DNA of 48,727 nucleotides, counting the filler, from Porpidia crustulata (Eukaryota): assembly GCA_964255105.1 (NCBI GenBank). It is 2 parts of 2 records of this genome, joined end to end, with 100 filler letters (N's around TTAATTAATTAA, not from the genome) between each part and the next. Parts side by side here need not be neighbours in the genome. Positions count along the whole stretch, not along the records: positions 1 to 24,397 come from CAXUWE010000059.1; 1 more part is not named here. One strand, given 5' to 3'. Below, piece after piece: positions 3,001 through 34,672 of this stretch (its first letter is position 1; each line of letters opens with the position of its first letter). The notes beneath the pieces are model-generated. The model had not been told where the DNA came from, ran no database searches, and saw nothing but the letters and a program-made list of their open reading frames with translations. A program made the position numbers and the translations under genes.

Positions 3001-4182
3001 GGCAAGGACTGGTATCTCCATAGCATTCATTATAGCGTCCTTCATTCGGCTTGTCTTTTGCAGCACAGAAGGGGAAAGCGCCACATTTGACTTGCCGGGC
3101 GCTCCGAGTGGTGGAAAAGGTGATAGGGAAAGGGGAATTCCCGCTGGCGTGGTAAGGGTGCGGCCATGGGACGAGCCGCAGTTTGAGCAGAAGCCAGGAC
3201 TAGTGGGTGATGATGGGCTAGAGATGGACAAGGGAGATAGTGCACCTTGTGTTGAAGATCTAGAGATGGCTCTTGGATGGTGCGGCCGCGTCGAAGATGT
3301 GGTAATAGTGGATGTGCTGGTGAAAGATAGCGTATAATATCTCTCATTTTCCATTGTCCATATTGATATAATCATCTTAGCGTCCGTTTGAGTATCGGAG
3401 CTGGAAGACATAGAGCTTTGTGAGGAAGAACGACCGCCAGCGCCAATGTACTGAGAATTGAGAACTACATTGACAACAGCATCGTGTACCAGTGCGCGGC
3501 CCCTTATTTTGCTCGAGGGATGCTTCATTTTTGTAGGGAATTTTGGAGCGGGGTTAGGGTTTGAGAATTCTCCCGAGTTTTTGTTCCGTTCGCCATCCCC
3601 ATCCTCATGATTTCTATGCTCAAAGTGATCCTTGGATGAAGGTGCGTTCGTATCCATTTCGTCGGCGAGCTCATCAAGAAATTGCTCCCAATTCACGAGA
3701 ATCGGCTGCCCATCCTGAACCATGTCCACGCCGACCTGCGTAAGTGATTGGCCTAAAAGTATATCCGTCACCGGGACTAGACCCTCGTTCCCCTCGCTGG
3801 AGAGATAATTGTTTCCTTCGGGGGAAGCTATGCCTAACAGCCTCCCCATAGCCCCGTTCGCCAACATTACCGTCTTCGTGGTAGATAAGACGATCAAAGG
3901 GGTTGGGAGATGTTGCAGGGCCGAGAATGCCGCGTCAGCTGCGCTGGGTATCTTCGGGATATCGACCGAGAGGGATGAACTGTATGGGTGAGGTTTGGGA
4001 CGCAGCGATATTTCCGGTATGGGGGTTTCAGGCGAGACATTGCCGCGCGTTGGAGGCCGCTGGGATCGATTTGAAAAATGGGCGGAGAGAGATTTCTTCA
4101 GCGACGGAAATTCCTCAAGATTATTCGGGCCCAAAGTCGGAGTCTCGAGGCCATTGCGTAGGGTAGGGGGCAGAGATTTCAT
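1..4182 (-). CDS. Hybrid sensor histidine kinase (PAS/PAC-HisKA-HATPase_c-receiver), probably fungal group V/HHK2-like; 3' end runs off the window
   Basis: PAS/PAC segments (MPQMLWTTTPEG...WQNPFHPDD...EYRCQRHDGAWRW), H-box FLANMSHEIRTP, N-box NLLTNSIKFT, G-boxes DTGIGI and GGTGLGL. Introns 1182-1133 and 764-719. Exon 3 (718 to <1) encodes the receiver (VEDNAINQ...ILMDVQMPVLDG...AMTASA...DDYLAKP) and stays open to position 1. The group assignment is tentative. Confidence 0.95.
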
Positions 4183-5340
4183 GCTATATCCTAACCGTGC
4201 ACTGGGCCCTTGAGATTACCGTATCTTTCTCGTGCCTGGCACCAGAGCCAGACAAATAATTCTTCCGGTTGCAGCAAGGGGCTAGCCGTAATGGAGTCGA
4301 GAGGACCGACTGCAACGAAGAGTCCCCTCCAATCGCACAACCCAAAGGAAGCGGTACACAACAGGTGAAGGGTGAGTTTTCCGGTACGATTGGGGAGTAA
4401 CGACTGGCAGTGACCTGTTCTTGATAATGGCGGTCAAATGTGGGGAGAAGGTTTGAAGAATCTGTGGGTCGGAAGCGTGAAGGTGAGCAGCGGGGCAGAA
4501 CTCATATGAGCAAGGATATTCCTCCCAAGCGTAATACTTCCCAAAGAAGTAGAGAACACACTATTTCACACCAAATCCAATGCTTCAACTTCTTGAGAAT
4601 AGTGGTTCAGGAGTGACATTTCGAATGGCAACGGAGTTTCAAATCCCAAGCAAGCCCGTTCTGTAGTAAGGAAAGCCCAGACCGTCGCACAGCTTTGGTG
4701 GCCGCTAGCGCAGCCTTTGAGCCCAATTTTCGCCGGGTCCAGCCACCAAATTCCTTAGACTTAACCAAAAATGGTTTAGATCCAAAGACCCTGTAAGTGC
4801 CTGAGTACCTTACTCAATCGATTAGGGTACCCAAGCCTACCTATGTATCCTAATGAACATTGTAACAAGGGCAATGACCCGACATTTGAGCCATATCGTC
4901 CAAGATATCAAGTCTCATCGTTTATCTCATATCTCCATTGATTGTGATGGCACATCGAGAGAGGATACCGAGTCCTCAACAAACCCTCTTTTCGTCAGAT
5001 GTCGAAACTCAAGTACGGCAGGTAACGTGCCTGCTGGCACTGGTCAAATGCTCCAGTGGTCTCGTCCTGGTACGTTCGCCCTCCATTGACCCTCTCCCAT
5101 TCATCCCTCCAAAGGAAAATTGGATTGGGTATACGTAGAAAGTAGACCAAACCGCTGCTACCCAAGACCGCCGACGACGCCATCTCAAGACATACCATAC
5201 ACCGACCCAATGCCGTACCAAGCCGAAATAAGCATGCATCAACGTGACCTCCATTCCAACCTCAATTGGTCAAGATGGGAATCTCTAATTTCGCTCTTTT
5301 CCAATGTACAGATCCTTCACCACCCATCGCCATTCACAGC

Positions 5341-6816
5341 TTAAATGATCCCTGCTAACCGTCGGTGCGGCTCAAATACTTCGAGATAGTGCTCCTCTGC
5401 CCTCTCGCAAACCCTGGTCCTTCCCACCCAATCCTTCAGTGTTTGATCCAACTCACACCCTATATCCCTCAGAATGTCCCACACCTCCCTCTCAAGATCC
5501 ACACCGAAAATCTTCTCCTGACTCTCTTTTGGACCCCACAGCCTCAGAGGCTTCTTTGTCTTCTCGGAGATCAAATCTTCATCGTCGAGTAAACGGCCGA
5601 GATTCATTTTCGGGACGTTGGCGTGCAGAAAGAAGGGGCGGACGGGGATGCTGGAGTCATTAGCCGCTGAGGCGAGGGCATCGTCACCGGCGTGAAATTG
5701 CACAATGGCACCACCTTTGAACTCGCCGTCCTCAGTATGGTAGCCCACAGTGCCGACGTGTTTCTTGACGCGGTAGTACGGTAGGCTGAGCACAACGGCA
5801 GCAGCCAAGAAGGTCTCCTTGTCACCTTCGCCAACGGCGCCTTGACTGAGCATGGGGTAGTAGTAGCCGGGGCCGTAGATGTTATAGTAGGCTGCGAGGA
5901 TTAGAGTGGGGAGGTGGGCTCTTTTTGAGATAAGGAGTTGGCCGGACTCGGACGCGCGAGCGGGCATATTTTGGGGAAAGCCGGGGAGACCGGCGATCAT
6001 GTAGAATACAGGATCCTCGGTGGCGATCCAGTAGTCTGGCCAGGAGATAAAGCCAGTCAACGTGAATGGTTCGGTGGAGAGGAGTTCTGTTGGGTCGCGT
6101 AGGGGCATGCAGTCGCTGTCGAGGAGAACGGTGGTTTCAAACGAGGAGAAGAGAACGGCAAGGACCTTGAGTTGATAGTGACTGACTTTGAGCGGAGATT
6201 TATGGGGGAGAAAAGACTCGAGGATGAAGCATTCGGCGCCAAGGGCGGGGAGGATATGTTCGCAAATGTCAGGTTCGTATTCCGTGCGGGATTGAAGGAA
6301 AACTTGGGCAGGCAGACGAGAGCCGGTTCGGCGGAGCATACGGAGGGTGAGTATTGCAGGGGCAAAATAATGTCCTCCCGCCACGATAATCACCCCGGTT
6401 CCAGCATAGATGGTGGACGTCAGATTTTGGAAGCTGTCCGTTGATCTGCGGATGTGCTGTAAGAGGCCCTTGTGTTTGTCATGGAGATTATCGACGTCTT
6501 CTTGGGTCAGCCCCAGTATGCTTTTACTCGGTGTCCGCTCTCCGTCTGCCTTGTCCGACCCATCAGTCGACGCCCTGTACTGGAGCTCTATAGGGTCTAT
6601 GGTTGGTTTGGCTTCCTCGAATTTGTGAGCCCAGTCTGCCCAGAACGATACAATGGCTTTTGGAGGAACACTAGGACCATGTTTGGTGGATAGGAGGATC
6701 GACGGCTTGTATGGACTGTATGACTTCTCCCAGGTATTGAGAAGCGCAAGCAAGGAAATAATCCCGATCGTCCCAACAGTAACCTGGAGTAATCTATGAG
6801 AAGGTCGGATGAACAT
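5341..6816 (-). CDS. Alpha-1,2-mannosyltransferase, MNN2-like (GT71), type II membrane protein
   Basis: Intronless ORF, likely ATG at 6816 (MFIRPSH). It has an N-terminal hydrophobic anchor and the motifs GVIIVAGG, YQLKVLAVLFSSFE, LLDSD (DxD), WPDYW, ESGQLL, GEGDKETF and FLHAN. Confidence 0.9.
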   Translation of the reverse strand: MFIRPSHRLLQVTVGTIGIISLLALLNTWEKSYSPYKPSILLSTKHGPSVPPKAIVSFWADWAHKFEEAKPTIDPIELQYRASTDGSDKADGERTPSKSILGLTQEDVDNLHDKHKGLLQHIRRSTDSFQNLTSTIYAGTGVIIVAGGHYFAPAILTLRMLRRTGSRLPAQVFLQSRTEYEPDICEHILPALGAECFILESFLPHKSPLKVSHYQLKVLAVLFSSFETTVLLDSDCMPLRDPTELLSTEPFTLTGFISWPDYWIATEDPVFYMIAGLPGFPQNMPARASESGQLLISKRAHLPTLILAAYYNIYGPGYYYPMLSQGAVGEGDKETFLAAAVVLSLPYYRVKKHVGTVGYHTEDGEFKGGAIVQFHAGDDALASAANDSSIPVRPFFLHANVPKMNLGRLLDDEDLISEKTKKPLRLWGPKESQEKIFGVDLEREVWDILRDIGCELDQTLKDWVGRTRVCERAEEHYLEVFEPHRRLAGII

Positions 6817-7585
6817 GACGAAGTATATTACAGCCGGGATCCGGGATTGAACGAGGATTGCAGATAAGGACAGTACATAAAAAGCTATTAAATGCAATTA
6901 GAGAATGCTATATTAGAGTGAATAGTAGGATGAAAGTAAAGGCCGTTAAAACTGGATCACGGATATCTTGAAAGCAATTCTATGATGCGTGGGGGCTTCT
7001 GCTCTACTTGTTCAACTTCAACAAGATTGCGGGCCACCTTAGGCCATTACGGAGAGCATGTTCGACCAATTGCGCGCGTTTGAGATTAGCCGAATAGCCC
7101 CGTGCCCCTCACCCTGAAACTCGCCCCTGCCAAGCTTTGTGGCCCCTTTCCTACACGTGTTATCTTCTCTTTTCTGCACCACAGCAGCTAAGACTCTAGC
7201 AATAGAAAAAGGATTAAAGCAGTGAGGTGCGGAATCAGTGATCACATAAAGCAGATATCTCAGGATATAAAAGGTTTAATTATCATGCTCTACTCATATG
7301 CAACAACATATGCTGCTTGAGTTTATTTACAATCAGGCATCCTTCGTCTTCATGATATAGCATACTCAAGAAAAACGAAATTCCACGCCTGCTGTATGAA
7401 GTGGTTTCTATCCTGAAGCAACTCTGGCAAAGTAGCGCAAACGCGAGAAAATATCCTCATCATCCGTGCGATAAGCGGCAGGTCTGCACCTATTTCCGGT
7501 GATAGGGAAGATTTCGACGGCGTGGGAGCATCGTCATCTGTGCGTCTTTTGCGCTGCTAAAGCTATGTCAGCACTGAAAGCCTTT

Positions 7586-8400
7586 TAACTGTCTGTCAGC
7601 ACAAAGCACGTATCGAGAATGAACACTTCTCTCCGCGCCGTCAACTTGAACCCACTGAGGCCCAGACTCTTTTCAATAGCCTTGTAAATCCGACACTCCT
7701 GACCGGCTTGCTTTCATCGCTTGCACGGCTCTTTAGCTGCCTGGCCCATTTCTCCTTCAATCATGGCAACATAAACGCCCTTTCTTGCCTTTGATCCGTT
7801 CTGCGAGCTGGCACCTGTCATAATACTGGGGATTATCATCGGCTTTATGCGTTCAACCGGCTCGAAAGCCGCGGATGCGTTGCGTTTGGTGGCGGAAAAT
7901 CGATCATCTTGGGATTCGGCGACGCCATAAACCGAGTAATTGTCTCGTTGGACTTGAATTGCGGGTAGTCACATTGAGAACAACAACCACCCAACCGTAG
8001 TCTCGGCGGAGAAGGCGAGGGAAGCAAGTTAGAATTACTGGAACGGCTGTATATCCCTTCATCGTACGGCTACTGGGGATGGTATCAGTTCTGTGAGTAA
8101 GTCATCTCAGATCATTTTGTAGACCCGTTCAAGCAATCTTGACGCGAGGTCCGATGAATCATCTCGCTGTTTGATGTCCAGATCTCCGGTAGGTAGGGAA
8201 CCAACAGTGCAGGAGCAGATCAAATTGGAATGTCATGTGCCTGGCAAGGATTTTGCTGTTTGCATGCCTGCAATGCTCGCAAAGTAAAGGTACAAACTAG
8301 AGAAAGGATCCGTCATGACAAAGACAAAATGTCAGCATAAAGGATGAGGTTTGTCGGAACGTAAAGAATCTACTGCGGTGGGGTGGTATCGTACAGAATA
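7586..8400 (-). pseudogene. Possible decayed gene for a Cys-cluster (Zn-binding-like) protein
   Basis: A minus-strand frame reads ...YVAMIEGEMGQAAKEPCKR*KQAGQECRIYK..., with TGA (7716-7714) where CxxC would place a Cys. Upstream there is an intron-like segment (gctgac...tag near 8340-8297) followed by a CEHC motif. Confidence 0.3.
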
Positions 8401-10094
8401 GTTCACACATTGAAAGGTTGTGCAGATCTTCACATCCCATATCTCGCTTTCGCAGCGGCTGGCTAGCTAGCATGTGTTTCGACCAGGAATTCTGTCTGGA
8501 CGACATTAATGGGGGCAACAAGGGTGGCGCCACGCCCCAAACGAAAAGTCTGAGCCTGTCAGCCCATAAAATCCACTCGGTCATAGATATTAACACAAAC
8601 ATCTAACAATGCCCCGCCGAATGGAACTTTGGTACAAAATTATGCATAAGAAGACGGTGTCGATACAGGAATGATAGGCGGACATCTCACGATTAGCTTT
8701 TGAGAGTCTTGAAATAAGGCGTGCCTAAAAGATGACAATCAGTATAGAATGTTGGATGGGAATAGCGGCAATAGAAGAAAATTGTGAGGAACCCTGAAAG
8801 TTTCATACTGATGCTGAAACAGAATGTGGAATTGTAGAAGTTGAACCACTAGCGAAAAACAGATTTCGCCGATGATGAGAAGACGAAGAAAAGCCTATCC
8901 TATGACGAAGCAATCACCGTTCTTGCTATGTCAGGAGGTTCTGCAATCAAATGCGCGCCCAAGGTCCGTCACGAAAAAAAGTATAAAGGGAAGTTCTCCG
9001 TTTAAAAAGAGCAAGGAGGCAGGACCTCTGAATTCCATCGTGTAAGTCCTCTGTACATTGATCAAAAAGGCGGCCGCAGAATTCTCCTCGGCGGCGATGT
9101 TACCCTGTAGTCTACATAAGTATTAGACGAGATGTCATTCCTCCAAATTAACCTCCAGATCTGCCGTTGAAGACTGCCCAGATACTTAGGCTGAATATTT
9201 TTTATTTATCTCCGTCTTATCTGCTTGCGTCCTATCACTCGAGTGTTAGTAGTATAGTGGTATAGCCATAAGGAGCACGTACCGTAACTTTCGTGTGATA
9301 TAATGATACACGGGGGTTGGGGGAAAAAGTTATGGGAGAAACATTAATCACATCGTCTTGAAACGCTCTGATACATATGATTTGAAAGACAACGGACCTT
9401 CTGCACCATCAAAATGAACAGGAGTGAAAGCAGATTACTTTGCAGAAGATCAACGAAGGTATATTGAGTAGCTGCAAGACAAACTAGACGTCAAAGAGAT
9501 CAAAAAAGGAATAATCAATTAAAACCATCGTAGAACAGTGCTAGAAGTTAAATAGATATTCTACTTAGTTTTAGAAAACAAGATAGTAGAAAATTAACTG
9601 TTCTCTCCATGAATTATTAGGGGTTTGATGGAGATCGCTTAATTTGATGTCCCACGACTTTTCCCCTCGACTTTCGATCAATTAGATATTGTAACCGCAT
9701 CTTATCTTATCAGCACCACGTTTTGAAGACGCCATACTAACTCCTTCGTTTGCGATGGCTTCTACTACATAGTACGTGAGAATCACGCAGTGGGGACCTT
9801 TGATTGGTATCTATATCAACACGACCCTGTCTTCTCCTGCATGCCCAGACCAACCACGCGCTGGGGGCTAGGCAGCAGCGCGGGAGAAAGAAGCGCCGGC
9901 GAAGGCGTTCAGACTTCTTTCGTCTCATGATCCATGACCTTCTGCTTCCCTGACACTTTGTGGTGGTTTTAGGTTTACAAGAGGGGCACTAATCCGTTGG
10001 GTGGTTACTCTCTCGGCTGCCATTACTGAATCTCCGCGCCAGAAGACTCCCTCGCCATTCAAAGGAGCCATCATTTCTCATCTCACTCTCACTC

Positions 10095-11605
10095 ATGCAG
10101 CTTCGATCTGGTCTCCTGCTCCCCTCGCGCCACCGATACCCTGCCGCTAGTTCGAAAACGCAAACGTTCATTTCAAACCTCTCCGCCGAAGCGGAGAAAG
10201 TCGACGAAGAATCAGGAGCGCAACGGGAACGGTCAGTTCTTAAATACCATCTTACTTGATTTCATATACTCACACAACCAGCAGAAGGTGTATCGCCGCA
10301 ATAGAAGCCAAGCGTCTACTGCTCTTTGGAATCCGCCGAACCACAATTAAGGTCATCACCGCGCCGCGCGACTCGAAGCAACGAGCATCCCATCAGCTTT
10401 CTTCCACAAGACTGGAAGTGTAGGATCATCGCTGGGGATTCTCATTCCGAGCGCGCCCCTTTGACTGAGAGGAACCTAAGGATTCATTCTCGACCAAAAA
10501 TGCCACGACGCAGAAAAGACCCGTCGACCACATCGTTCACAAGCATCACTACTACTACCTCTACCACTACAGACAAAGGCCTTGGAATTCAGCTGAACAA
10601 GAATCGCATCATCTACGGTCGTCTCAACACAAAGAAACCCGAAAATATTATTACGGTCAAAGATTATTTGAACACGGCACGAGAGTCAAATTCTCCTGAA
10701 GAGAAAGACTATGATCGATACATCGAACAAGTCGAGTATTGTGATAATGAGCTCTCGATGCAATCGAACGTCTGGCCTTTACTTGCTAAGCACCCGATAC
10801 GCCAGGCTACACAGCAAATTACAATTTCCAGTGGACTGAGGTCGAGAGCCCCCTCACGTTTGGGCTTAGCGATGCCAAGCCAGACATTTCAGAAAGTTAC
10901 CACAGGGACCAGTACCCACCGGACGCCTGTGAAGCACTTGGTGGCGCACTTGCGCCGACTCAATATAACGGGACCATGCCAACTTTCTGTGTTGAATGGA
11001 AAGGTCCGGATGGCATAATGCCTTCAGCAGAGAAGCAATGTGCCTATGACGGGGCACTAATGGTAGATGCCGCATACGATGCCCATAAGTACATGAACAA
11101 AGACCCGATTGAGTTTTTGAACAAAACACAAGCTCTAACTGTGGCGCTTAACGGCGAGTATGTCCATTTCTATGGCAACCATGTGGTAGAGAAGAGCTCA
11201 AGTCTGGAATACCATCAGTATCCATCACAGATCCATAAGCCAAGGGATTCGTTGAAGGACTTCAAGGAGACACACAGGTCAGTTCGAAACGCCCAAGACT
11301 GGTCCCGAAAGCGCGCAACACGAACCAAGGATGACTTGCACGCGTATGCACAAGCCAAGGAGGTCGTTCCCACCATCTTGCCCCGGCCAATCGATGAACC
11401 TGAGGTCACCGGGACGAAATGGCTTTGGAGTGCAGAACACGGCAGACACTACTGTATCCTCTCCGATGGATCCTTCCAATGGTCTGCATCGGCGCCGCCT
11501 GCTCCGGCCGTCACTCCACCATCTACGACCACATCTTCTGGTCCGAATTTGGGAGAAGCGAGACGACGGGGCAGGCCAAGGAAGAAAAGAAACGGTCCTA
11601 ACTGA
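10095..11605 (+). pseudogene. Disrupted gene for a fungal PD-(D/E)XK-like (DUF7924-like) protein with a C-terminal AT-hook
   Basis: Reconstruction: ATG 10095 (MQLRSG), frameshift at C-run 10121-10124, basic segment RKRKR...PPKRRK, intron 10232-10281, in-frame TAG 10302-10304, second frameshift at C-run 10793-10795. It then reads GLSDAKPDISESY...PTFCVEWKGPDG...AEKQCAYDGALM and ends RRRGRPRKK. Confidence 0.65.
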
Positions 11606-11992
11606 CAGTAATTGGCTATTCCGCGTCCTCTGAGGAATGGGAGCTCGACAACTAAGAAGCGTGCTCGCCTGAGAGCTGAGACTTCTCACGCTTCTCCCAG
11701 CGAAGTGTGTCAAAGACCCAAAAAGCCATGAAGGCGTTTCAGCCTCTCTGGTCAAGGGGAGCTCGCCGCGCAGCGTCGAGAAGGTCTGCTGGCTTGTGAT
11801 GTCGCGTCGTAGTTGCGGGGTTGCGTTGATTGTTATGCGAGTAAAGCAGAGCTTGTCGAAGCTAGTTCCAAAGGCCGCGAAAATTTCGCATTGCGAATAC
11901 AGGCACATAGCCATTCCAGACCATGAGTGCTACGCATGTGGGGAGAAGAATAGTGCTACAATGCTATCATCGTATTGCCGAGCTATTCCTCA

Positions 11993-13066
11993 CTAAGCGA
12001 ATCCAAGACTCTCGGGTCTTCTCGACACCCTTCCACTCTTCGTCTGAGATTCTCTTAGAGACCGTTGCCTGTCCTCCTGCTTCATTTGCCGTGCCCTTTT
12101 TGCTGGATTCCGCTGCCTTCTTTTGTGGGCCATACTCGATGTGAGAAATTCTGCGTTGATCTTTGTAGGGAGCTTGCTCTTAGGTGCCCTCGTATTTCTG
12201 CTAGTAGCATGCTGTGCACTGTCGGGATGTAAAGCAATACTTGCTTTGTGAAGCTGAACTTGTCGGCCAGGTGAGTTCGGCTGGTTGATGAGGTTGCCGA
12301 GTTGGTCAAGCTGATGTGTTGGTAAAATTGTTGTGGAGGTGAAGTTCGAATCTTGCTGCTTATATTGTCGCACTTCTAAGAGCCTCCTAGCTTTTCGCCC
12401 AAAAATTTGGCTTCATGTTGTTTTCTTGGTATCCGGCGTCGTAGGCTTCGATCGTTGGGTGGCTGTTTCGATATCCTCGAAGAAACTGGCCTGAGAACTG
12501 AGCGAGCCTTTGACTTCTCCTCTAGGAGCCTAGGAGTAGTTGCTTTGCGAGCAGCATTGGCCCGATACTCACTACCTGTACTATCATATATGGACGTCGA
12601 TTTCTTGTTGTCTGTCCCTTGACCTGTCTTACCATCTGCGTCCTCATCAAGGGGTAATGTCGGCGAACGTATACGTATTGATGGTGCAGGAGCGTGTGAT
12701 TTTCTAGGGTAGGAAGCGTCAGCGTATGAAAGTGACATGAATGGGGCATACATACTCAAGTGCAGACTCAAGTGCAGAACTGAGTGCAGCGGTATCCAAA
12801 TCGGTCGACTTCTCGGAATGTCTGACTGACGCGTTAGGTAAGAAGTAACAGTCTCTGGAGAACGTCTCGGTGGCGTACTGTATCTTGGCACATACGAAGC
12901 TTAGGTCCTCTCTCAAATAATCTTGAATACCTGGAATTTTGATGATTCTTCGTAGCAGAATAGTGTCAGCATGGTCAACCACGAGTGACGATCGTTTCGC
13001 TGGAGTAGGCTGCGTACGTATGAGAATCAAAAACCTGGTAGGTGCGACGAGCAGCAAGCTTCTCAA
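11993..13066 (-). pseudogene. Frameshifted low-complexity basic protein remnant ending TKSGRVSRRPESLGFA
   Basis: Consecutive minus-strand ORFs in different frames (13066-12719, 12891-12376, 12373-11993). They are Ser/Arg/Lys-rich, with RSVLRPVSSRISK and a C-terminal T(R/K)SGRVSRRP-type motif. Confidence 0.4.
12754..12789. repeat. 12-bp tandem repeat (ACTCAAGTGCAG x2 plus one degenerate copy)
   Basis: actcaagtgcag actcaagtgcag aactgagtgcag, read directly. Confidence 0.85.
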
Positions 13067-13163
13067 TTGTAGAGACGGCTGTAGGAGCCATGATGGCTAG
13101 AAAGGTGGAACAAATTTAAGGTAGATACAGATGGTAAGGTTGAAGTATTATCCCTGAACGGCA

Positions 13164-15066
13164 CTAACGGGTCCTCGGGAAGCTCCGGAGCGCCGATCGA
13201 CTAACAATATTCGCCGCCATTACTAGTACACAAATCCATCTCTTCAAACTCATCATAGACGACGGTGGGGTCTCAGTACCGGAAGGCATCGAATCGGGTC
13301 CAGTTTCTGCCGTGGATAAGGACTCGCTCGATTGCATCCTGGCCAGTTGCCGCTTGTCGCTATTAGAGGTAGTTGCGGCCTCGCTCATCGGCATCTTGAC
13401 CATTTGCCAGTCGTGGATGACGGGAGCAGGTGTGGTGTCAAAGCCACCGGAGACAGGAGCTGCTGCTGTCTCGAAGGCGCTGGTGCCGAGAGCAGCCGCA
13501 GCTTCGAAGTCATCGTGTACATTCATGTCATCCCTCTTTCGCTTCCTCGTAGTAACCTGGTCGTGGTCGACAATATTTGAGGGCCAATTGAACAGTAATT
13601 CATGGGAAAAAGCGTCCAAACTGCCCAAGTCGGCGTGACTCGCGCACAAATGATAGGGCCAGATAGACCATCTACCTTCGATCTAGACATTGTTATTTCT
13701 CTGGATGCTGTTTTCGGGGCAGGGGAAGGGAATCTCAAAGTCCTTATTTGTATCAAACAAGTTCTGAACAGGGGTAAGGTCCGGCTCATCGGTTTCCGTG
13801 TGAACGGAATTAACATGGTTCTCCCACATATCAACCTAGATACTCAAACACCATTGTTTTCTTGGCGAACGCATCCCGAACATTCAGAATCCTTCTCAGG
13901 GTAATGTTCCTTTTAGACATGAACCGTCTGCCGATGCGTTATAAATTCTCTATCAGCAGCGAAGAAGCTCTGACAGAGCAAAGATTGTCTTTTCGTCTTG
14001 GCTGGGGACGAACAAGAGAGAACTCGGGGCGTGTGGTTCAGGCTATGAAATCTCTTACGGTGAGCGTTTTATGTCGATGCTTCGTCGACAGAAACTTCAA
14101 TTTGCTGAAGAAGACACTTCGGACACGAGACGAAGCGCCTGAATGTGGTTTTCTGGACGTGGACGTTTTTGCACTGTTTCGTGAGCTCGGATCAATCGCG
14201 ATATCACTTGTCGCAGAGAAGACATCTCGACTACTTCTCAGTTGCGCTATTCTTTAAAAATAGGATCACGCCAAGTTTGTCGTCGTTGCTTATTATAACA
14301 TGCAAGAACTTAGGATCGGTCGGATTTGCGAATCTTTGATCGATCACGATAAATTATAGTCCTTGAACGCACGTTGCCAAGATTAATAGCGGGATGGTTC
14401 ATCAATCCTCTTCTTCACAAGCACACTGTCATCGGCTTTGGCATTAAGTTCTCTTCAGCACTGTGTAACACTCGCAGCCGAATGTACAGTCCGTACCTTC
14501 TTGACTTCTTCTGGACCGAGTACAACAATCCATTTTGTCGTATTTTTGACGTAACTTTCGTGGAACAGTCGACAGAGTCGCATAATCCTCGGTCTTCATT
14601 GCACAGGTTTTTGCCATACCATATCGAAAATGGTCTTTTTGACCTTTTGTGAAGAAGCGGGAAGTAGAGACGTTGGTGGATAGAATGGAGAATGGCATGA
14701 GAGCATTCATCGTGTTCAATGTTTCATGGAAGGATTTCGACTGGTATCCATTACTGACGCGACAAGTGGCTTTTGATATCACGAAGCCTCCAATTCTCCA
14801 CTTATATTGTCGACCCGTGCACTGTATCCCTTCATTCTCCTCTTCTGACGCCCACAAATCGAACCCCACCACCCCGGTCAAAATATAGTAATTGCGATAT
14901 CTAATTGGATCGATGAGTATATCGTAAATTTCGAACTTTGAGGGAGAGGAACGTATGGGCATCTGATGGAATGAAGTGGATGATTGTGTGAAAAGGAGCT
15001 AGGTACGTGATTAACAGCCTTAGAAAGAAAGGGAAGGATTGAGCAAGGATGAATATCTGTCTCCAT
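13164..15066 (-). pseudogene. Decayed multi-C2H2-repeat gene, resembling the C-terminal half of a DUF3435 (Starship captain) tyrosine recombinase
   Basis: Translating through stops and frameshifts gives three related units: RCLLCDK*YRD*SELTKQCKNVH...FVSCPKC...*NAHRKRFH (14228-14045), QSLLCQSFF...ITHRQTVH...SECSGC...MWENHVNSVH (13987-13800) and FEIPFPCPE...IWPYHLCASH (13739-13635). A basic RKRKR and an acidic tail follow. The recombinase catalytic residues cannot be confidently recognised. Confidence 0.55.
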
Positions 15067-15209
15067 TACCGTGCGACATCACGCCTTCAACCGCGTACTC
15101 TACATATTAATTACCAAATCAAAATGCTTTTTTCGCTCCCGTTCCAATCCAACAATCCAAGAGGGAAAAACACCGAGACAGAATGCTTGTAAAATCCAAG
15201 GCGCGGCCC

Positions 15210-15270
15210 GGGGGGGGGGGGGGGCGGGGGGGGCGGGGGGGGGGGGGGCGGGNNNNNNNNNNCCCCCCCC
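15210..15270. other. Scaffold gap (10 N) flanked by poly-G on the left and poly-C on the right
   Basis: G-run 15210-15252, N 15253-15262, C-run 15263-15270. Confidence 0.9.
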
Positions 15271-15351
15271 GAAGACTCGTACAACGCGCAACCCGTCCAA
15301 TGCAATGCAGTTCAAGAAGACGCACCACCATCGTTCCTCAGACGAAAAACA

Positions 15352-17610
15352 TCAGAAAATGCCCCACTTTCTCCCCTTCTTCTCTTCTTCCTCCTTTTCT
15401 TTCTTCCCTCCACCAGCAGGGACACCGCCAGCGACCCTGATGCTGGCAGTGTTGTTCCCTCCTCCCGCAGCCGCAGCTCTTATGGCGGCGATCCGATGCT
15501 TGGCCCTCTCGTCCCCATGGTCCGCAGCCCTTACATACCACACGTTCGCCTCGAGCGGGTCGCGGCGGCAGCCGATGCCTGTTTCTGTAAAGTAGCCAAC
15601 GGCATATTCGGCCTTGGGGAGGCCTGAGATTTGCTATCACTAAATGCAATGATGGTGACAGGAGGAGAATGACGACATACCAGTCTTAGCGGCCTTTCTA
15701 GCCCATTCATATGCTTCATTCTCATCTTTATCAAGCACTGGCTCTGCACCAACCATGTACCACGCACAGAGCGCCATCATCGCCAAATCATGGCCCTGTT
15801 GCGCAGCTCCAGTGTAGAAATGCACGCTCAGCGCTGGGTCTCGCGGGCAACTGAGCTTCCCATGTTCATACGCATCACCCAAGCGATAATTCGCTTCCAC
15901 ATGACCTAGGTCCGCGCTCTGGGTGAATAGCTGAGCGGCATATGACTCGTCATGGAAGACGTCGTCGCCGTAGCCGGTCTCGTGCAGTAGTCCGAGTTCG
16001 TAGGGCGCGCTGTTGTATTGAAAATCCGCAGATTCCGAGGCGCGTTTGAGCCATTTGAGACCCTCGCGGTAGCGGTTACCGAGACCCATATCGCCTCTGA
16101 GACAAGCGCAGCCAAGGCGAGTCATGGCGCCGGGGTGGTTCTTCGAGGCTGATTGTCGGTAAAATTGGACTGCTTTGGGAGGGTCTTTGCGGGTGCCCCA
16201 GCCGAATTCGTAGCAGAGAGCGGCGCGATAGCCGGCTTCTGCGTGGCCGTGCTTGGAGGCAGCAATGAAGAGAGGAAATGCACGGTCGTAGTCCTCTTTG
16301 CCTTTGCTGAAGAGCCCGGACGCGTACCCGTCGGCAAGGTAGTATTGGGCAAAGGGGTAGCTGCGGTCGGAAAGGCGTTGAAGGATGTTGCGGGCCTCAC
16401 GGAGAAGTTCGGTGGGGGAGCTGGTGGGGATAGTGTCAGACGTGCCGTCGAGTTCTCTCGATGGTTTCGGACTCGGTTGTCGCCGTATACCATCTCCCTC
16501 TCCAGTGGCAGCTGCTTCGTTGGCGGCATTGATCATGAATACAGCAAATTCGTACTGAATGGTGGGGTCATTCGTCTTTTTGACATTCGCACGATACATG
16601 TCTAGGGTTTTCCTGGTGCTGAGAAGGGACGCATTCGCGCCCACAGCGTCTCGTAGATGGGCGTTATCAAGGTTTGTTGGCGCTGGGGGTGGTTGAGGAT
16701 ACGGAACGTTCAGTAAGTCCACGTACGAGACTGGGCGACTATCTGAATTCCCCGAATTTGTAGACTGTGCGCGGACGTATTGATTAGGTGAAAGCTGGGG
16801 GGATCGTGCACGTCCACCAAGTTCGGAGCCAGAGGAGTATGTTGACGAAGGCCTATGTAAATTTGAGCCAAAATGACTGTTTCCCACTGGTGCTAGAAGT
16901 TGATGTGATGATACACTGTGCTCCACTGAGAGCGAGGTTGGTTCACCAGATATTGAGGCTTGGAACTGTGGACGTGATGGGCGGCTACCCACTACTCGAA
17001 CATGCTGGCTTGGCTCGGGTTCTTGATGATGATATTGAAGCGGCCAAGTGGAGGCTGATGGCTGCGGCATGCGCTCAATGCTACCGCCAGATGTGTTTCT
17101 TGAATGCGGAGTGCTGATGGGAGGGCTTAAATCGCGGCCGCTCATAGATGATAATATCGCCGCCTGAGGTCTTTCAAGGGTATCTGGAGCCTCTCTAGTA
17201 AGCCTTTGTCTATAAGGAATAGACTGCGTGATCGGCATAGGCTCTCCATAGGTTCCTGAGGGCTCTCGCCCTTGCTCCGACTCCAAGTCCCAATTTTCAG
17301 ATCCACCGGAAGCTGCTCTTAAATTAATATCATCGCCGGTCTCGTACGACACCATTCGTACCGGTGACCTTGGGTACTTGGCATCTGTTACGTTGTTCAT
17401 TGAAATCGGTGATAATGGGGTTGCCTTACGGCTGCCAGTGGGTACCGTAGGAAGAGGCTTGCGAGGTGATGGGTGCGCGAAAGCACCCTGCAAAACATCC
17501 TTGGACGGTGTTTCCGCAGGTATAGAAAGTGGTCCCTCAAGCCCTGACCCTAAACCTCCCTCGTATGTCTGCGAAGATCGCCTCCTTCCCTTACCATCTC
17601 CCTCAGCCAT
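15352..17610 (-). CDS. SEL1-repeat chitin synthase activator (Chs4/Skt5-like)
   Basis: Likely ATG at 17610 (MAEGDG), disordered N-terminus, then TLDMYRANVKKTND and tandem SEL1 repeats (AQYYLADGY, AMTRLG, APYELGLLHETG, ANYRLGDAYEHG, AMMALCAWYMVG). Intron 15680-15624; exon 2 reads GLPKAEYAVGYFTETGIG...KWGIF*. Confidence 0.93.
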
Positions 17611-19838
17611 CGTCCCTAGGTACCCCCGTAGTACTCTGGATGAGCAACCGAATCCCAGCCAACCCTGTTTCTCCCTGATTATTTCCCACTCCCGCCTGGC
17701 TATTGTTTCTTTCCTCGGATTAACCTCAAATTTGAACCGGTAGCAGCAAGGACTTCCTCGGGGTTTGGTATAGGGGAGCGCTACTGGCAATTGTGTATTA
17801 AGCTGTAGTTTTGGGAGCTTCGGTCATTCACAAACGACGACGGACCGAGATCTAAAGTTTAGTACGAGCTTTATAGGACGAAGATTTCGGCCCAACTTCA
17901 GGTCGTCTATGTATAGATGTCTGGCGCTGACGGCGAAGGCGCCGCTGGGTGGAAGGAGACGCAACGTTCAAATAGCAAAGAGAGACCACTCAGTGAAAGG
18001 CTGAGGTTGTTGTTCAGGCCTATATCTCGTCACAAGAAGGGAGCTTGTCAAATCCACGAAATGCGTGTACTTCTAAAGGCTCTCCAGGAGCGGGCGAAAG
18101 AACAAGGAGACAACGAGTAGCGTCATTGGCGCAAGGAACACCAATGTATCCTAGTAGTAGACCAGTAAAGCTTACAATCAGCATCAAGAGGAAGGCTGAG
18201 AACTACAAAAGGACGTCTTGCCAGCAAGTCCAAGTCCATCCAACAGCCAACAATTAGGAACCGCAGGATCCCTGACAAACGATTTTTGTTCCGCGCGGCG
18301 CGCCTATTTGTCAAGGGCCCTAAGGTACTTACAGATCACCAGATCTACTCGTTCTACAACTACAAGCTAGGCTTCTATCCTATATCACTTCTATGTCAGT
18401 TGCTATGCTAAGCACTCCCATCAGCTCTTGGCAGTGATTGTTCAATGGTAGAGAGCATAGAACCTAGATATGCCAACGGGGTCTCAGCTTATGCAAGAAT
18501 TTTGGTCATGGCCCCCCGTCTTCGTCCGGATGTCTTCGCACTCGACGCACTCGACACTTGTCTCTATTCTCGGACACGGGGTAGCGTCAGCGCTCTCTAT
18601 TTGCCCGCCACACACCTCCGCGAAAGTGTGTGTGATGAGTGGTACTAGATAATTGGGGTGTGCGTGGCTTGGGCTATTATATTAATGATGCCGGTGTTAG
18701 AGCAGTCCAGATCGGTACCTAAAGACTGGCTCGTAGCTACAGCAATCAGGCATTTAGGAAGGTACCTATTTCATCAACGCAGAAATAAAGTGATTGGCTA
18801 CTAAGGCACTGCTAAGGATAGGATCATTGGTATACTACGTAGTACGAGAATTAATGTAGTGCATGCTAAAGGCCGTCTCCCGGGCCCTTGACTTAAAGTA
18901 AGCATTTGATGCAACTGACGATGAAGTCGATCAAGAACCCCATCAGGCTGTCCCGTCCTTAGAAACCCAACAGTGAGATGTGAGTTACCTTTAATTAGTG
19001 TCGCATGTAGGAATTTCTCATCGTCACATCGTTGACGTTGATCCTTTCCATATGAAAAAGCCTTCGTGTATGACAGACGACAGATGACAGTTTCGCACCA
19101 TGAGTTGATATACACTCAGTACACATGTTAGAAACCTTTCATTCTGTCTTGTCTATGGATCGCCATTGTACATTACTGTAGGATACTAAAGTAAGTAATT
19201 TGGTCATGATGAGTATTAGTTGCGTATATTGTGGTAGAGTATTGTTGTCAACTTGGTTGTTTTCATCGCTATGGGCAACCCTACAGTAAGTGGGTAAGTC
19301 CTAAGTCCTAAGGCAAGGAGGCCATTGAGGCGTGCGTGGCTAACGTAATCCCTGCGTTACTCCCATCATCCCCTTGTTGATGAAACGCCAGATCATCCAC
19401 ACAAAATTCGGCTGCGTGGATGTATCGCTGCATGCTGTGCGATTATCTTACTGATATATTCGACGCTCTCGTTTCTGTACATCCTCCCAGGAGTTTTTGA
19501 ACTCGTAGGTGAACAGGGCAGTATGGTTATATTGTCACTCGCTAGCATTTTGCCTCTTTATTTATAGCGTTGTTGTCTCGCCAGGAGGATTTTCTGCAAT
19601 CCTTCTGCAGCCTCTCGTGCAGCCGATATCGATGCAGTCAACCGGGAGCTGATTGCTATTTTCTATTGTCTCTCTGTCTTGCTAGTGACCGAGTTACAGT
19701 ATCACCGGCTTCAGCCCATCGAATAGTCCTTCACTCGCTTGGTGATATCTGTTGGGTTTGGAAAAGGGTAATAGCACAAGGTCTGCCACGCCGGTCTGGA
19801 ATGCTGCTAATGTTTATTTCCCTTACAGTGATCGAGCC

Positions 19839-22800
19839 ATGTCTTTACCCCGAAAACCCTCCGCTACCTCCCCAAGGAGAACACATGGAGCCTCACCTTA
19901 CCGAGAATCTCCGTCACGGCGACGTGCTCGACCCCAAGACCTTGAGACTGGTGCTCCATTAGAGACTCCATCTACTCCGTCACGAAGACCTCGGCAACAA
20001 GCATTTATTCAGGCACAGTCGTCACCGAGAACTCCCATGGGAGAAAAGTCGCCCATAATGACAACGCACAACGTCTCAAATGATATAAGTAGGAAGCGAA
20101 GTCTTGTCCGACCGGAACGCAATCGAATAGATCGAGATCATCCCAATTATCACTACCGCCAACACGCCCAGAACATGACCGTTTATCCTTCAACTACGGG
20201 GAACGATCCCGTGGTCGAAGATCCTGAAGAGGCTGAGACAATGATATCGGACGACACAGAGCTGAAAGCCCTGCGCAGAGAGCCTGAGGATGATGGTCAT
20301 GACACCTTATACTCGGACAACACACCTCCTCGTGGACGGCCTCGTGAGCCTGCGCCCGTTGTTGGGAATGGTAATAAGCGTCTCAAGCGTAAACTCGAGC
20401 GAAAGCAGACGAAGCCCTTAAGTGAAGAGGAAAAGAGGCGGAAAAAGGAATTGAATTCGGTAAAGCCGCCGAGTCTCTGGAACGTCTATTGCGCAATTGT
20501 TACATTCTGGTGTCCAGGGGCAATCCTGTCTTGTTTTGGAAAGCCTGCAAAGGCTCAACAACGGGCGTGGAGGGAGAAGATGGGTCTAATCAGCATAATC
20601 TTACTGATCATGGCATTCGTTGGATTCATCACGTTCGGTTTTACGGCCGCCGTATGTGGTACGCCGGGCCTTCAGATACAAGCCAATCACGTTACAAACG
20701 GCTTCATGATTTTCCATGGGCGTGCTTACGACTTGGTCGGGTCTCGGCATCCTGCTGCTATGCCAGATATCGAAGCAGGGAATAATATCTTGTATGATCT
20801 GCCACACAAGTATGGCGGGCAGGACGGAAGCTTCATGTTCCAGAATGTGAACGGGGCTTGCAAGGGGCTCATCACTCTTGCACAAGGTTCCGATGTTCCT
20901 ACCAACGCCAACGGCGACCTTGCATGGTATTTTCCATGTGTCGCTTTCGATCAAGATGGATCAAACAAGCCTAACCTTACGATTGAGAACTACTTCGGCT
21001 ACGCTTGCCACACGAGTGCTCTTGGACGCAAGGCTTTCTACAATCTACGCGATTCAGGAGATGTTTATTTCACTTGGGATGATATCAAAAACCAGACCCG
21101 GAATCTCATGGTGTATAACGGCAACGTACTAGATCTCAACCTTCTGGAATGGTTCAACACGTCTCAAGTATCCTACCCTGTCCAATTTGACGACTTGAGG
21201 AGCAACCCCGCAGTGAAAGGTGTGGATGTCACACATGCTTTTCAATCAGGTCCCGATAAACGTTTAGGCCAATGTTTGTCAGAAATCATCCGTGTCGGGT
21301 CGATCGATACCGAGACCGTTGGCTGTATTGCGTCTAAGGTGGTGCTCTATGTGTCTCTGGCCTTCATCTTGTCCATTGTGTTGGTGAAATTCTTCCTTGC
21401 CTTGGCTTTCCAATGGTTCTTCAGCCGTAGGTTCGCAGCTACCAAAAGCTCCATGGGCGGAAACTCGAAGAAGCGCAACCGGCAAATCGAGGACTGGAGC
21501 GATGACATCTACCGGGCTCCCCCAAAGATCAATGATCCCGCGCCAGCCATGTCAGACAGGTCAAGTAAACGAGGAAGCGCTTTTCTGCCTACCACTTCTC
21601 GCTTCACAAGTCCTTATGCAACCGAACGTTTAACGGCCAAGAATCGACCCGCTCCAACCACCATGGCAAGTCAAAGCTCTGCGGCAAGACCCATGCGTCC
21701 TACTTCAATGTACAAACAAGTCGATGGTAGCGAACTTACGCTGCCGAGCTTCGATCCTACTTCCAGGAACAGTGGTGCTGGAAGTCGATCAAGTCTGATG
21801 ATGTCTGGACAAGACCCTAGGTACTCTAGTGTCATGGCAGAGGTTGATGGGCCAGGGCCCGCAGGATTTATCCATGAAGCAGTAGTACCCCAACCTCCTC
21901 CGGAATGGGAACCTTTTGGATATCCTCTTGCTCATGCCATTTGCTTAGTGACGGCTTATTCCGAAGGAGAGGAGGGTCTGCGAACGACGCTTGATTCTAT
22001 TGCAACTACGGAGTACCCGAATAGCCACAAAACGATTTTGGTGATTTGTGATGGCATGGTCAAAGGTCACGGCGAAGAATTTACTACTCCTGAGATTGCG
22101 CTAGGCATGATGGGAGATCACGCAATACTACCTGATGAGGTTCAAGCTTTCTCGTACGTTGCCGTAGCTAGCGGATCAAAGAGACATAACATGGCAAAGA
22201 TCTACGCTGGGTTTTACGACTATGGAGAGAACTCAATCATTCCGTCAGAAAAGCAACACCGGGTGCCTATGATGGTGATTGTCAAATGTGGAACTGAAGA
22301 CGAAGCTAAAAAGAGCAAACCTGGCAATCGTGGGAAGCGAGACAGTCAGATCATTCTAATGTCTTTCTTACAGAAGGTCATGTTTGACGAGCGTATGACT
22401 GAGCTGGAATTTGAAATATTCAACGGACTTTGGAGAATCACTGGTATCTCGCCCGACTTCTATGAGGTCGTGCTCATGGTGGACGCCGATACCAAGGTCT
22501 TCCCGGACAGCCTCACACACATGATCTCAGCCATGGTCAAGGATTCAGAGATCATGGGCCTTTGCGGAGAGACCAAAATTGCCAATAAGCGGCAAAGTTT
22601 TGTGACCATGATACAAGTCTTTGAGTACTTCATTTCGCATCACCTCTCCAAATCTTTCGAGTCCTGCTTTGGTGGTGTTACCTGTTTACCAGGTTGTTTC
22701 TCAATGTACCGCATCAAGGCGCCCAAAGGCGGGCAGAATTACTGGGTACCGATCCTCGCCAATCCGGACGTTGTCGAACATTACTCGGAAAATGTGGTCG

Positions 22801-23585
22801 ACACTTTACACAAGAAGAATCTGCTCCTGCTTGGTGAAGATCGATACCTTTCGACATTGATGTTGAAGACGTTCCCAAAACGCAAGCAAGTATTCGTCCC
22901 GCAAGCAGTGTGCAAAACCACGGTGCCCGAGCAGTTCAAAGTCTTGCTATCCCAACGTCGGCGATGGATCAACAGCACCATCCATAACCTCATGGAATTA
23001 GTGCTCGTTCGTGACCTATGTGGCACGTTTTGCTTCAGTATGCAAATGGTTGTTTTCATCGACCTAGTCGGTACTCTTGTTCTGCCAGCTGCCATCACCT
23101 TCACCTTCTATCTCGTCATCATTTCGATCATCAGCAAACCCACGCCTGTCATCCCACTGGTTCTATTGGCTCTCATTCTCGGATTACCGGGGCTACTCAT
23201 TGTGATGACAGCCCACCGGTTTTCATACGTCTTATGGATGTTGATCTACCTGATTTCGCTTCCGATCTGGAACTTTGTTCTCCCAGTCTACGCGTTCTGG
23301 AAGTTCGATGATTTTAGTTGGGGTGACACTAGGAAGACGGCAGGGGAGAAGACGAAAAAGGCTGGGATTGAGTACGAGGGTGAATTTGATAGTAGTAAGA
23401 TCACTATGAAGAGATGGGGGGACTTTGAGAAGGGTAAGAATAGTCTTATCAACCAGTTCGTCCAACGCTAATTTGCTGCAGAACGACGATTAAAAGCACC
23501 CACTTCCGGCTGGTCCCAGCAAGCTACCAGCACTGGCGGTTGGCAATCCCAACATCAAGGATATGAGCAGTACTCGGATATGTAA
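19839..23585 (+). CDS. Chitin synthase class IV (yeast Chs3 / ChsD-like, GT2)
   Basis: [63 protein letters not shown] and DDFSWGDTR motifs, with no myosin motor. ATG 19839, intron 23434-23481, stop TAA at 23585, 5'UTR intron 19768-19828. Confidence 0.96.
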
Positions 23586-24397: not shown

Positions 24398-24497
24398 NNN
24401 NNNNNNNNNNNNNNNNNNNNNNNNNNNNNNNNNNNNNNNNNTTAATTAATTAANNNNNNNNNNNNNNNNNNNNNNNNNNNNNNNNNNNNNNNNNNNN
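24398..24497. other. Artificial contig-joining spacer (N44-TTAATTAATTAA-N44)
   Basis: Exactly 100 nt with a palindromic six-frame-stop linker at 24442-24453. It cuts through the stop codon of RPS15. Confidence 0.97.
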
Positions 24498-25265
24498 ACT
24501 TCAACGGAATAAACCTCGAACTATGCGTCGCCCCAATCCCCGGCCTCCCATGCTTCACCGGCTTATAACTGATACTAAACTCCCCCAAATAAAACCCCAC
24601 CATCTCCGGCTTGATCTCGACCTGGTTGAACTCCTTGCCGCTATAAATCCCAATCACGGACCCGATCATCTCCGGCACCACGATCATGTTGCGCAGGTGC
24701 GTCTTGACCAGCTCGGGCTTCTCGTTCGGTTTGGCTTCCTGCTTGGCTTTGCGGAGCTTTTTGATCAGGCCCATGGGTTTGCGCTTGAGGCCGCGGTTGA
24801 AGCGGCGGCGGGCGCGGGCGTGGACGACGTCGCGGAGTTGGGAGGAGGAGAGATCGAGGGNNNNNNNNNNGGTAGGTGTATATATGTATGATTCTGTTTT
24901 GGGGGTTGTTTTGATGGTGTTGTTTTTGTCGGGTGGGGGGTAGTGGAGACGGACTGGTCGAGGTCGATGCCGCGGTAGGAGAATTTACGGAAGGTTCTCT
25001 TCTTTTTGAGCTCTGTAGGGAGAGGTAGAGTGTTAGTCGATTGTTTGACCACCAAGGCTTCGACGATGTATCCCGCAAGCGTTATGAGGGTTTCGTTAAA
25101 GGATGTATGATGGAGCGATCTTTGGTTTTGATGATTGATTGGTAGGATGGCACTCACCAGCAGCCTCCTCGGCGTTCTAAATCAATTCCTCGTCAGTTGG
25201 TTCATCTACTGAACAAGATATCAATTTCTCGCAGAGGGTTTACTTACATAGTCTGCATCAGCCAT
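24498..25265 (-). CDS. RPS15: 40S ribosomal protein S15 (uS19)
   Basis: Exons 25265-25248, 25176-25158, 25012-24955 and ~24860-24498; the last acceptor is hidden in the N gap 24861-24870. Protein reads [17 protein letters not shown]...[17 protein letters not shown]...[22 protein letters not shown]. The stop falls in the spacer. Confidence 0.97.
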
Positions 25266-34584: not shown

Positions 34585-34672
34585 GCCCGCATGGCTTAGT
34601 GGTACAGCGTCTCACTCGTATACAATTTCATTCGTCATGAGAAGATCATCAGTTCGATTCTGATTGTGGGCA
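34585..34672 (+). tRNA. tRNA-Thr(CGT) with a 16-nt intron (34621-34636)
   Basis: Acceptor stem GCCCGCA/TGTGGGC, A-box TGGCTTAGTGG, anticodon stem TCTCA/TGAGA with loop CT-CGT-A, T-loop GTTCGATTC, downstream T-runs at ~34698-34711. Confidence 0.92.

Follow-up and report, generated by a model that had tools for sequence, protein, structure and literature searches.

Remains of a probable Kirc-like DUF3435 recombinase gene with a paired zinc-finger tail in Porpidia crustulata

The captains of Starships are supplied by the DUF3435 superfamily of tyrosine recombinases, whose core-binding and catalytic domains hold the R-K-H-R-Y pentad. HhpA, the captain of the Starship Hephaestus, is an experimentally proven Starship recombinase. 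It is nuclear and is encoded by the first gene of its element, and the part of PMC10104507 that deals with it describes no zinc-finger tail. Kirc, the captain of the Starship Enterprise of Podospora, combines the tyrosine recombinase (DUF3435) with a central Zn finger and a chromodomain (PMC8092012), a domain picture mentioned also in PMC11162782; the relevant passage of Vogan et al. reports little sequence similarity between Kirc and HhpA. In the sections of the starfish paper concerned, 10,771 predicted recombinase genes are set against 348 high-confidence elements, and many of the predicted genes are considered to be possible pseudogenes or solo captains (PMC11162782).

Here we describe a stop-riddled gene relic on the minus strand of Porpidia crustulata (assembly GCA_964255105.1). 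The window, by which we mean the whole stretch of DNA that was analysed, has a length of 48,727 nt, and its positions 1-24,397 correspond to CAXUWE010000059.1. The relic very probably represents a gene of the DUF3435 tyrosine-recombinase superfamily, of its Kirc-like branch, that is dead and has suffered an internal deletion. Its homologues belong to the same superfamily as HhpA; unlike HhpA as described in the part of PMC10104507 mentioned above, it has a zinc-finger tail. Kirc was compared by its published architecture: the finger homologue P0023 of the relic likewise consists of DUF3435, fingers and Chromo, whereas the relic itself lacks a recombinase core, shows no detectable chromodomain and is interrupted by 10 stops. 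Premature stops throughout the relic are also what derelict Starships and pseudogenised captains, e.g. the Wallaby captain, would lead one to expect, a recognised outcome according to the passages of PMC11162782 on the subject; unlike these, the relic has no RIP signature, and its entire catalytic region was cleanly lost while the flanks are recognisable. Because the domains used for the recombinase phylogeny are deleted, the relic cannot be placed in it.

The relic lies between a mannosyltransferase gene and a Skt5-like gene, in the surroundings of a gene-dense ascomycete chromosome. The neighbouring genes, identified by Pfam searches of long ORFs, and the block of DNA that contains the relic are as follows; further housekeeping genes were found by the same searches elsewhere in the window.

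1-4215, minus strand: hybrid histidine kinase
5341-6897, minus strand: mannosyltransferase
6822-15345, no strand assigned: lineage-specific block of 8.5 kb that separates the mannosyltransferase gene from the Skt5-like gene and lacks a counterpart in related syntenic loci
10305-11605, plus strand: DUF7924 gene (44 bits), with a long ORF at 10790-11605; it is read from two ORFs that overlap, and near 10790-11018 there is a frame change or an intron
15640-17823, minus strand: Skt5-like gene with Sel1 repeats
19746-23471, plus strand: chitin synthase

When the minus strand of 13164-14661 was translated in three frames and read through stops, it revealed a zinc-finger array in which two kinds of fingers alternate: A fingers of the pattern CLLC...H-x4-H and B fingers of the pattern F-x-C-P-x-C...W-x-x-H-x4-H. 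The array is preceded by an N-terminal segment and followed by a basic motif and a tail. The features are listed below in the direction of reading.

14359-14652, minus strand: N-terminal pre-core segment, in a third frame, equivalent to residues about 61-200 of the homologue P0032
14282-14358, minus strand: deletion junction with a frame change, about 77 bp in place of 466 profile columns in homologues
14159-14224, minus strand: finger 1A, with two in-frame TGA stops and Gln in place of the first His
14045-14143, minus strand: finger 1B, all four ligands kept, the conserved W replaced by a TAA stop (14069-14071)
13919-13984, minus strand: finger 2A, reading SLLC (Ser in place of the first Cys), both His kept
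13800-13885, minus strand: finger 2B, with a frame change between 13844 and 13826 and a TGA stop at 13844-13846
13755-13781, minus strand: finger 3A, a stump without any ligand left, recognised by alignment to the homologue P0013
13635-13739, minus strand: finger 3B, PFPCPE(N)...WPYHLCASH, second Cys gone, TAG stop at 13683-13685
13527-13547, minus strand: basic motif RKRKRDD, seen in the read-through translation
from the basic motif to the stop at 13164-13166, minus strand: tail, running through ...ETPPSS... (13248-13274)

The two halves of finger 2B are read in successive frames, with ECSGC encoded from 13844-13885 and WENHVNSVH at 13800-13826. In total, the homologous stretches contain 10 in-frame stops and two frame changes, and three zinc ligands are substituted, in addition to finger 3A with none remaining. 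The motif RKRKRDD may be regarded as a putative nuclear-localisation signal. The tail is acidic only at its start and then rich in Ala, Ser, Thr and Pro; from the basic motif to the final ...ETPPSS... it is similar to the tail of P0013 (BLASTP, E 3e-15). Thus, where the preliminary description had proposed three tandem A+B units followed by RKRKR and an acidic tail, the three FxCPxC...WxxH fingers and the basic motif are indeed found, whereas only two (C/S)LLC fingers are recognisable and the acidity is confined to the beginning of the tail.

The array was compared with profiles of its homologues. A profile built from 34 of them, searched against the six-frame translation of the window, matched only at 13856-14248 (91.1 bits) and at 13227-13817 (26.5 bits). 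As controls, this profile and a 3-protein profile were searched against the reversed translation of the six frames and against 20 residue-shuffled versions; the best control scores were -1.0 bits and -3.3 bits, respectively. The finger pattern is not due to chance, and the stop-riddled minus-strand array noticed at the outset is real. No Pfam family was matched by the read-through translations of the relic, nor by the plus-strand frames of 13100-15249. A word-index protein search with the finger region gave nothing at E<=1, and one with the N-terminal region of the homologue P0022 returned P0022 alone; this method is too insensitive for such queries.

Homologues were collected by a phmmer search of 1.84 billion cluster representatives (E<=1e-3), for which the query was 13832-14998 in read-through translation. 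The search yielded 35 proteins, namely the window's own 172-residue ORF, 100% identical over query residues 13-184, and 34 non-self homologues, all of which match the finger region (query 233-386; best E 3.3e-15). DUF3435 was detected above the Pfam gathering score in four of the 34 (P0022, P0023, P0029 and P0032), which are full-length proteins whose homology covers the finger repeats, and weakly in two more (P0013 and P0030). Additionally, Pfam found Chromo in P0014, together with fingers, and in P0023, together with DUF3435 and fingers. Many of the remaining homologues start abruptly within a conserved stretch, and the nine with the highest scores (P0004-P0012), mostly truncated models, have no Pfam DUF3435 match. 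The link was also analysed with residues 400-640 of P0022, a probe that comprises the C-terminal third of DUF3435 and the linker and lies largely inside the Pfam match of P0022. This stretch was found directly upstream of the fingers in 20 of the 34 homologues; the remaining 14, of 162-386 residues, are fragments that contain fingers and no recombinase segment. An independent count took the intact fingers of P0004 as the query and covered proteins of 663-2000 residues (E<=1e-5); five of the seven long homologues obtained have precomputed PF11917 matches. The named homologues are those of Trematosphaeria, Podospora didyma, Xylariaceae, Icmadophila, Sticta, Bimuria, Hypoxylon and Parathielavia. 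The statement, in the preliminary description, that one DUF3435 group ends in CLLC, PFPCPEC and WxxH repeats is borne out by these proteins, in which the fingers follow DUF3435 in the full-length members, and it agrees with the Kirc picture as published.

Further evidence for the origin of the relic was obtained from the DNA upstream of the fingers. The N-terminal parts of P0022, P0023 and P0032, located upstream of their DUF3435 domains, matched 14365-14592 by tblastn, and the segment at 14359-14652, interrupted by three in-frame stops (TGA at 14596-14598, TGA at 14455-14457 and TAA at 14383-14385), gave BLASTP E-values of 2e-11 against P0032 and 7e-09 against P0022 and 35.3 bits with the 3-protein profile. 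An 8-protein profile was made of full-length proteins, all eight of which have PF11917. Its columns 67-164 matched 14359-14652 (57.5 bits, iE 2.4e-19), columns 631-775, which correspond to the fingers, matched 13841-14245 (67.3 bits), and columns 752-876, which correspond to the tail, matched 13257-13751 (15.9 bits); the three matches are collinear and all on the minus strand. No match to columns 165-630 was found in the six-frame window with filters off at E<=10. Column 164 is equivalent to residue 201 of P0032, where its Pfam DUF3435 match starts, and the homology to P0013 picks up again at 14281 (tblastn). Missing at the junction are about 1.4 kb, corresponding to the core-binding and catalytic domain of DUF3435 in its entirety and to the linker; the R-K-H-R-Y pentad is absent with the region that would bear it. 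PF11917 was not found at E<=10 in P0001, in P0002 or in any of the three minus-strand frames of 12000-13300 and 14200-15249. Nor did Pfam detect Chromo downstream of the tail, whether in P0001 or in the minus-strand frames of 12000-13300. Since no DUF3435 residue is left in the locus, family membership is read from the flanking regions only. What the locus retains is about 100 N-terminal pre-core residues, about 2.5 double-finger units and the tail, collinear on the minus strand.

The view of the relic as the C-terminal half of a dead captain has to be modified in part: the gene is dead and its fingers correspond to the region C-terminal to DUF3435, whereas an N-terminal segment is kept as well and the core between them is deleted. 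Likewise, of the originally suggested span of 13164-15066, homology extends over 13164-14661 and is not detectable in 14662-15066. The weak echoes of the core that had been noticed near 15040 and at 14630-14760 were not substantiated, as neither matches any family profile at E<=10, nor PF11917; the one at 14630-14760 falls within an orphan ORF that is read in another frame. A stretch reading SKIRK in another frame, considered as a counterpart of the P0013 linker, was dropped, being without profile or tblastn support while the N-terminal segment fits the same DNA better. An open frame of 184 codons (14444-14998, minus strand) overlaps the N-terminal segment in a different frame. The annotated 172-residue protein P0003 derived from it has no homologue among the 1.84 billion representatives (phmmer) and is probably a spurious gene model.

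Two readings that would separate the relic from dead recombinases are each very unlikely, as is chance. The array could be what is left of an ordinary C2H2 transcription-factor gene, unrelated to any recombinase. It shares the Cys2-His2 ligand pattern with classical C2H2 transcription factors (PF00096), weak zf-C2H2 and zf-H2C2_2 Pfam matches occur in several homologues, and the sources describe the named homologues only as 'C2H2-type domain-containing', 'hypothetical' or 'uncharacterized' proteins. However, the B fingers of the relic differ from PF00096 in their longer Cys-to-His spacer (15-19 residues), their conserved Trp, their pairing with A fingers and the position behind a recombinase in homologues. 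The same repeats are combined with DUF3435 in P0022, P0023, P0029 and P0032, an N-terminal segment specific to DUF3435 proteins is collinear just upstream, and no transcription-factor-like architecture was seen among the homologues, which makes this origin highly improbable. That the gene is live, being read across introns or domesticated as a core-less zinc-finger protein, is hardly tenable. The last 172 codons (13164-13682) are open and the overlapping 184-codon ORF upstream is annotated as P0003; against this, the stops fall inside the conserved finger motifs and not between them, zinc ligands are lost and two frame changes are present as described above, and P0003 is in a different frame and without homologues. 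The relic very probably belongs to the dead recombinases of the subtype in which, as in the published Kirc, the C-terminus carries C2H2-like zinc fingers in pairs, followed by a basic motif and a tail rich in Ser and Pro. Such a relic would be unable to recombine DNA and is presumably without present-day function.

In order to compare the locus with those of related fungi, we used 80 metagenome-contig loci (930,791 bases) found with the Skt5-like protein. Neither the block nor the relic had any tblastn, blastn or profile match in these 80 loci. The block is absent in the nine closest of them (L003-L011), which belong to other species at 73-74% Skt5 identity. In these, Skt5 is followed by the mannosyltransferase, with matches 736-767 bp apart by tblastn and 464 bp apart by blastn, and the histidine kinase comes next; in the other 71 loci the mannosyltransferase is not adjacent to Skt5. 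At the DNA level, the P. crustulata mannosyltransferase (5345-6821) is inverted with respect to both neighbours, relative to two related loci, and the nine loci show the same mannosyltransferase orientation by tblastn. Because of this inversion relative to the relatives, the history of the locus must be more complex than one insertion.

About 700 bp separate the 5' end of the relic (14652) from the Skt5-side block edge, which, like the other edge, is not defined to the base; the relic reads inward. Among direct and terminal inverted repeats, only imperfect ones of 16-28 nt were found, none of them at plausible ends; decay could have erased terminal repeats. Six-frame Pfam searches recognised DUF7924 as the sole other gene in the block and detected none of the known Starship accessory genes (DUF3723, PLP, FRE, NLR). 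A passage of PMC13412767 lists DUF7924 among the most copy-number-variable families in Neurospora. The DUF7924 ORF holds a stretch 'KPD ... about 35 residues ... EWK', possibly a putative PD-(D/E)XK-like nuclease motif as judged from sequence; the ORF gave no match to solved structures when these were searched by sequence. In the far part of the block, about 3 kb (7000-10300) are without Pfam matches in any of the six frames, the ORFs there do not exceed 106 codons, and this region has the lowest GC of the window (0.43-0.46).

The block with its inward-reading relic at the edge fits a derelict captain-first element. The ancestor of the relic would have been a DNA-binding recombinase of the nucleus, brought in by an insertion between the Skt5-like and mannosyltransferase genes. 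Most simply, its gene would have been the leading one, oriented inward, in a mobile element that was small or has since eroded, and 6822-15345 may be the remainder of this element; ordinary mutation and one large deletion, without RIP, would have followed. The designation as a Starship captain, as first proposed, is plausible and not proven: the position at the block edge and the inward reading argue for it, and the lack of direct or terminal inverted repeats and of known Starship cargo argues against it. Within this explanation, the leader of a cargo-carrying Starship and a solo captain are about equally likely. It is possible, though somewhat on the unlikely side, that the gene stood alone as a captain-like gene or formed a small Crypton-like unit, in either case without cargo at any time, and that the rest of the block is unrelated lineage-specific sequence. 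This would agree with the repeats and cargo genes that were looked for and not found, DUF7924 being the only other gene, and with PMC11162782, in the relevant part of which only a subset of annotated captains is assignable to elements and solo captains are possible; it agrees less well with a relic within about 700 bp of the block edge that reads inward as captains do, and with the entire block missing from the relatives. This is a sub-question inside the preferred explanation, and the identity of the relic itself is unaffected by it.

An ancestral block, including the recombinase gene, that was deleted in the related fungi is improbable. The comparison loci are from other species, at no more than the Skt5 identity given above, and 71 of the 80 lack the mannosyltransferase beside Skt5, so that none of them serves as an outgroup with this gene order; on the other hand, no homologue of the block occurs in any of the 80 loci, and its content is a mobile-element relic together with a member of a family that is highly copy-number-variable in the account of PMC13412767. 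Returning to an element that inserted, internally deleted, non-autonomous derivatives are typical of cut-and-paste DNA transposons, and to our knowledge they have not yet been described for Starships. As an unlikely and speculative suggestion, 6822-15345 might be such a derivative, a derelict mini-Starship, whose arrival or removal attempts perhaps inverted the mannosyltransferase.

The dinucleotide indices of 13164-15066 (TA/AT 0.59; (CA+TG)/(AC+GT) 1.16) are like those of the rest of the window and show no RIP signature, and RIP was rejected as the source of the stops. Pseudogenised captains and derelict Starships have already been described, and the relic adds one more example; it is modestly unusual in that precisely the catalytic domain was cleanly lost between recognisable flanks, in the lack of RIP and in the neighbouring inversion. 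Such relics mark former landing sites of giant fungal transposons or solo recombinases; with the diagnostic domain lost, neither ORF-based annotation nor domain searches reveal them. For Kirc-like captains that lack DUF3435, secondary markers are available in the N-terminal segment and the paired-finger tail.

With regard to the assembly, a gap of 10 N (15253-15262) is located inside a long poly-C/G tract (15190-15280) just downstream of the Skt5-like gene, and some sequence may be absent at this point, upstream of the relic. Being about 900 bp from the deletion junction, the gap cannot conceal the missing recombinase core. Other runs of N are present at 24398-24441, 24454-24497, 24861-24870 and 43634-43643. 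No tRNA or 5S gene was found near the relic locus; a tRNA that ARAGORN did not report was found by Rfam at 34585-34672 (plus strand, 55.6 bits).
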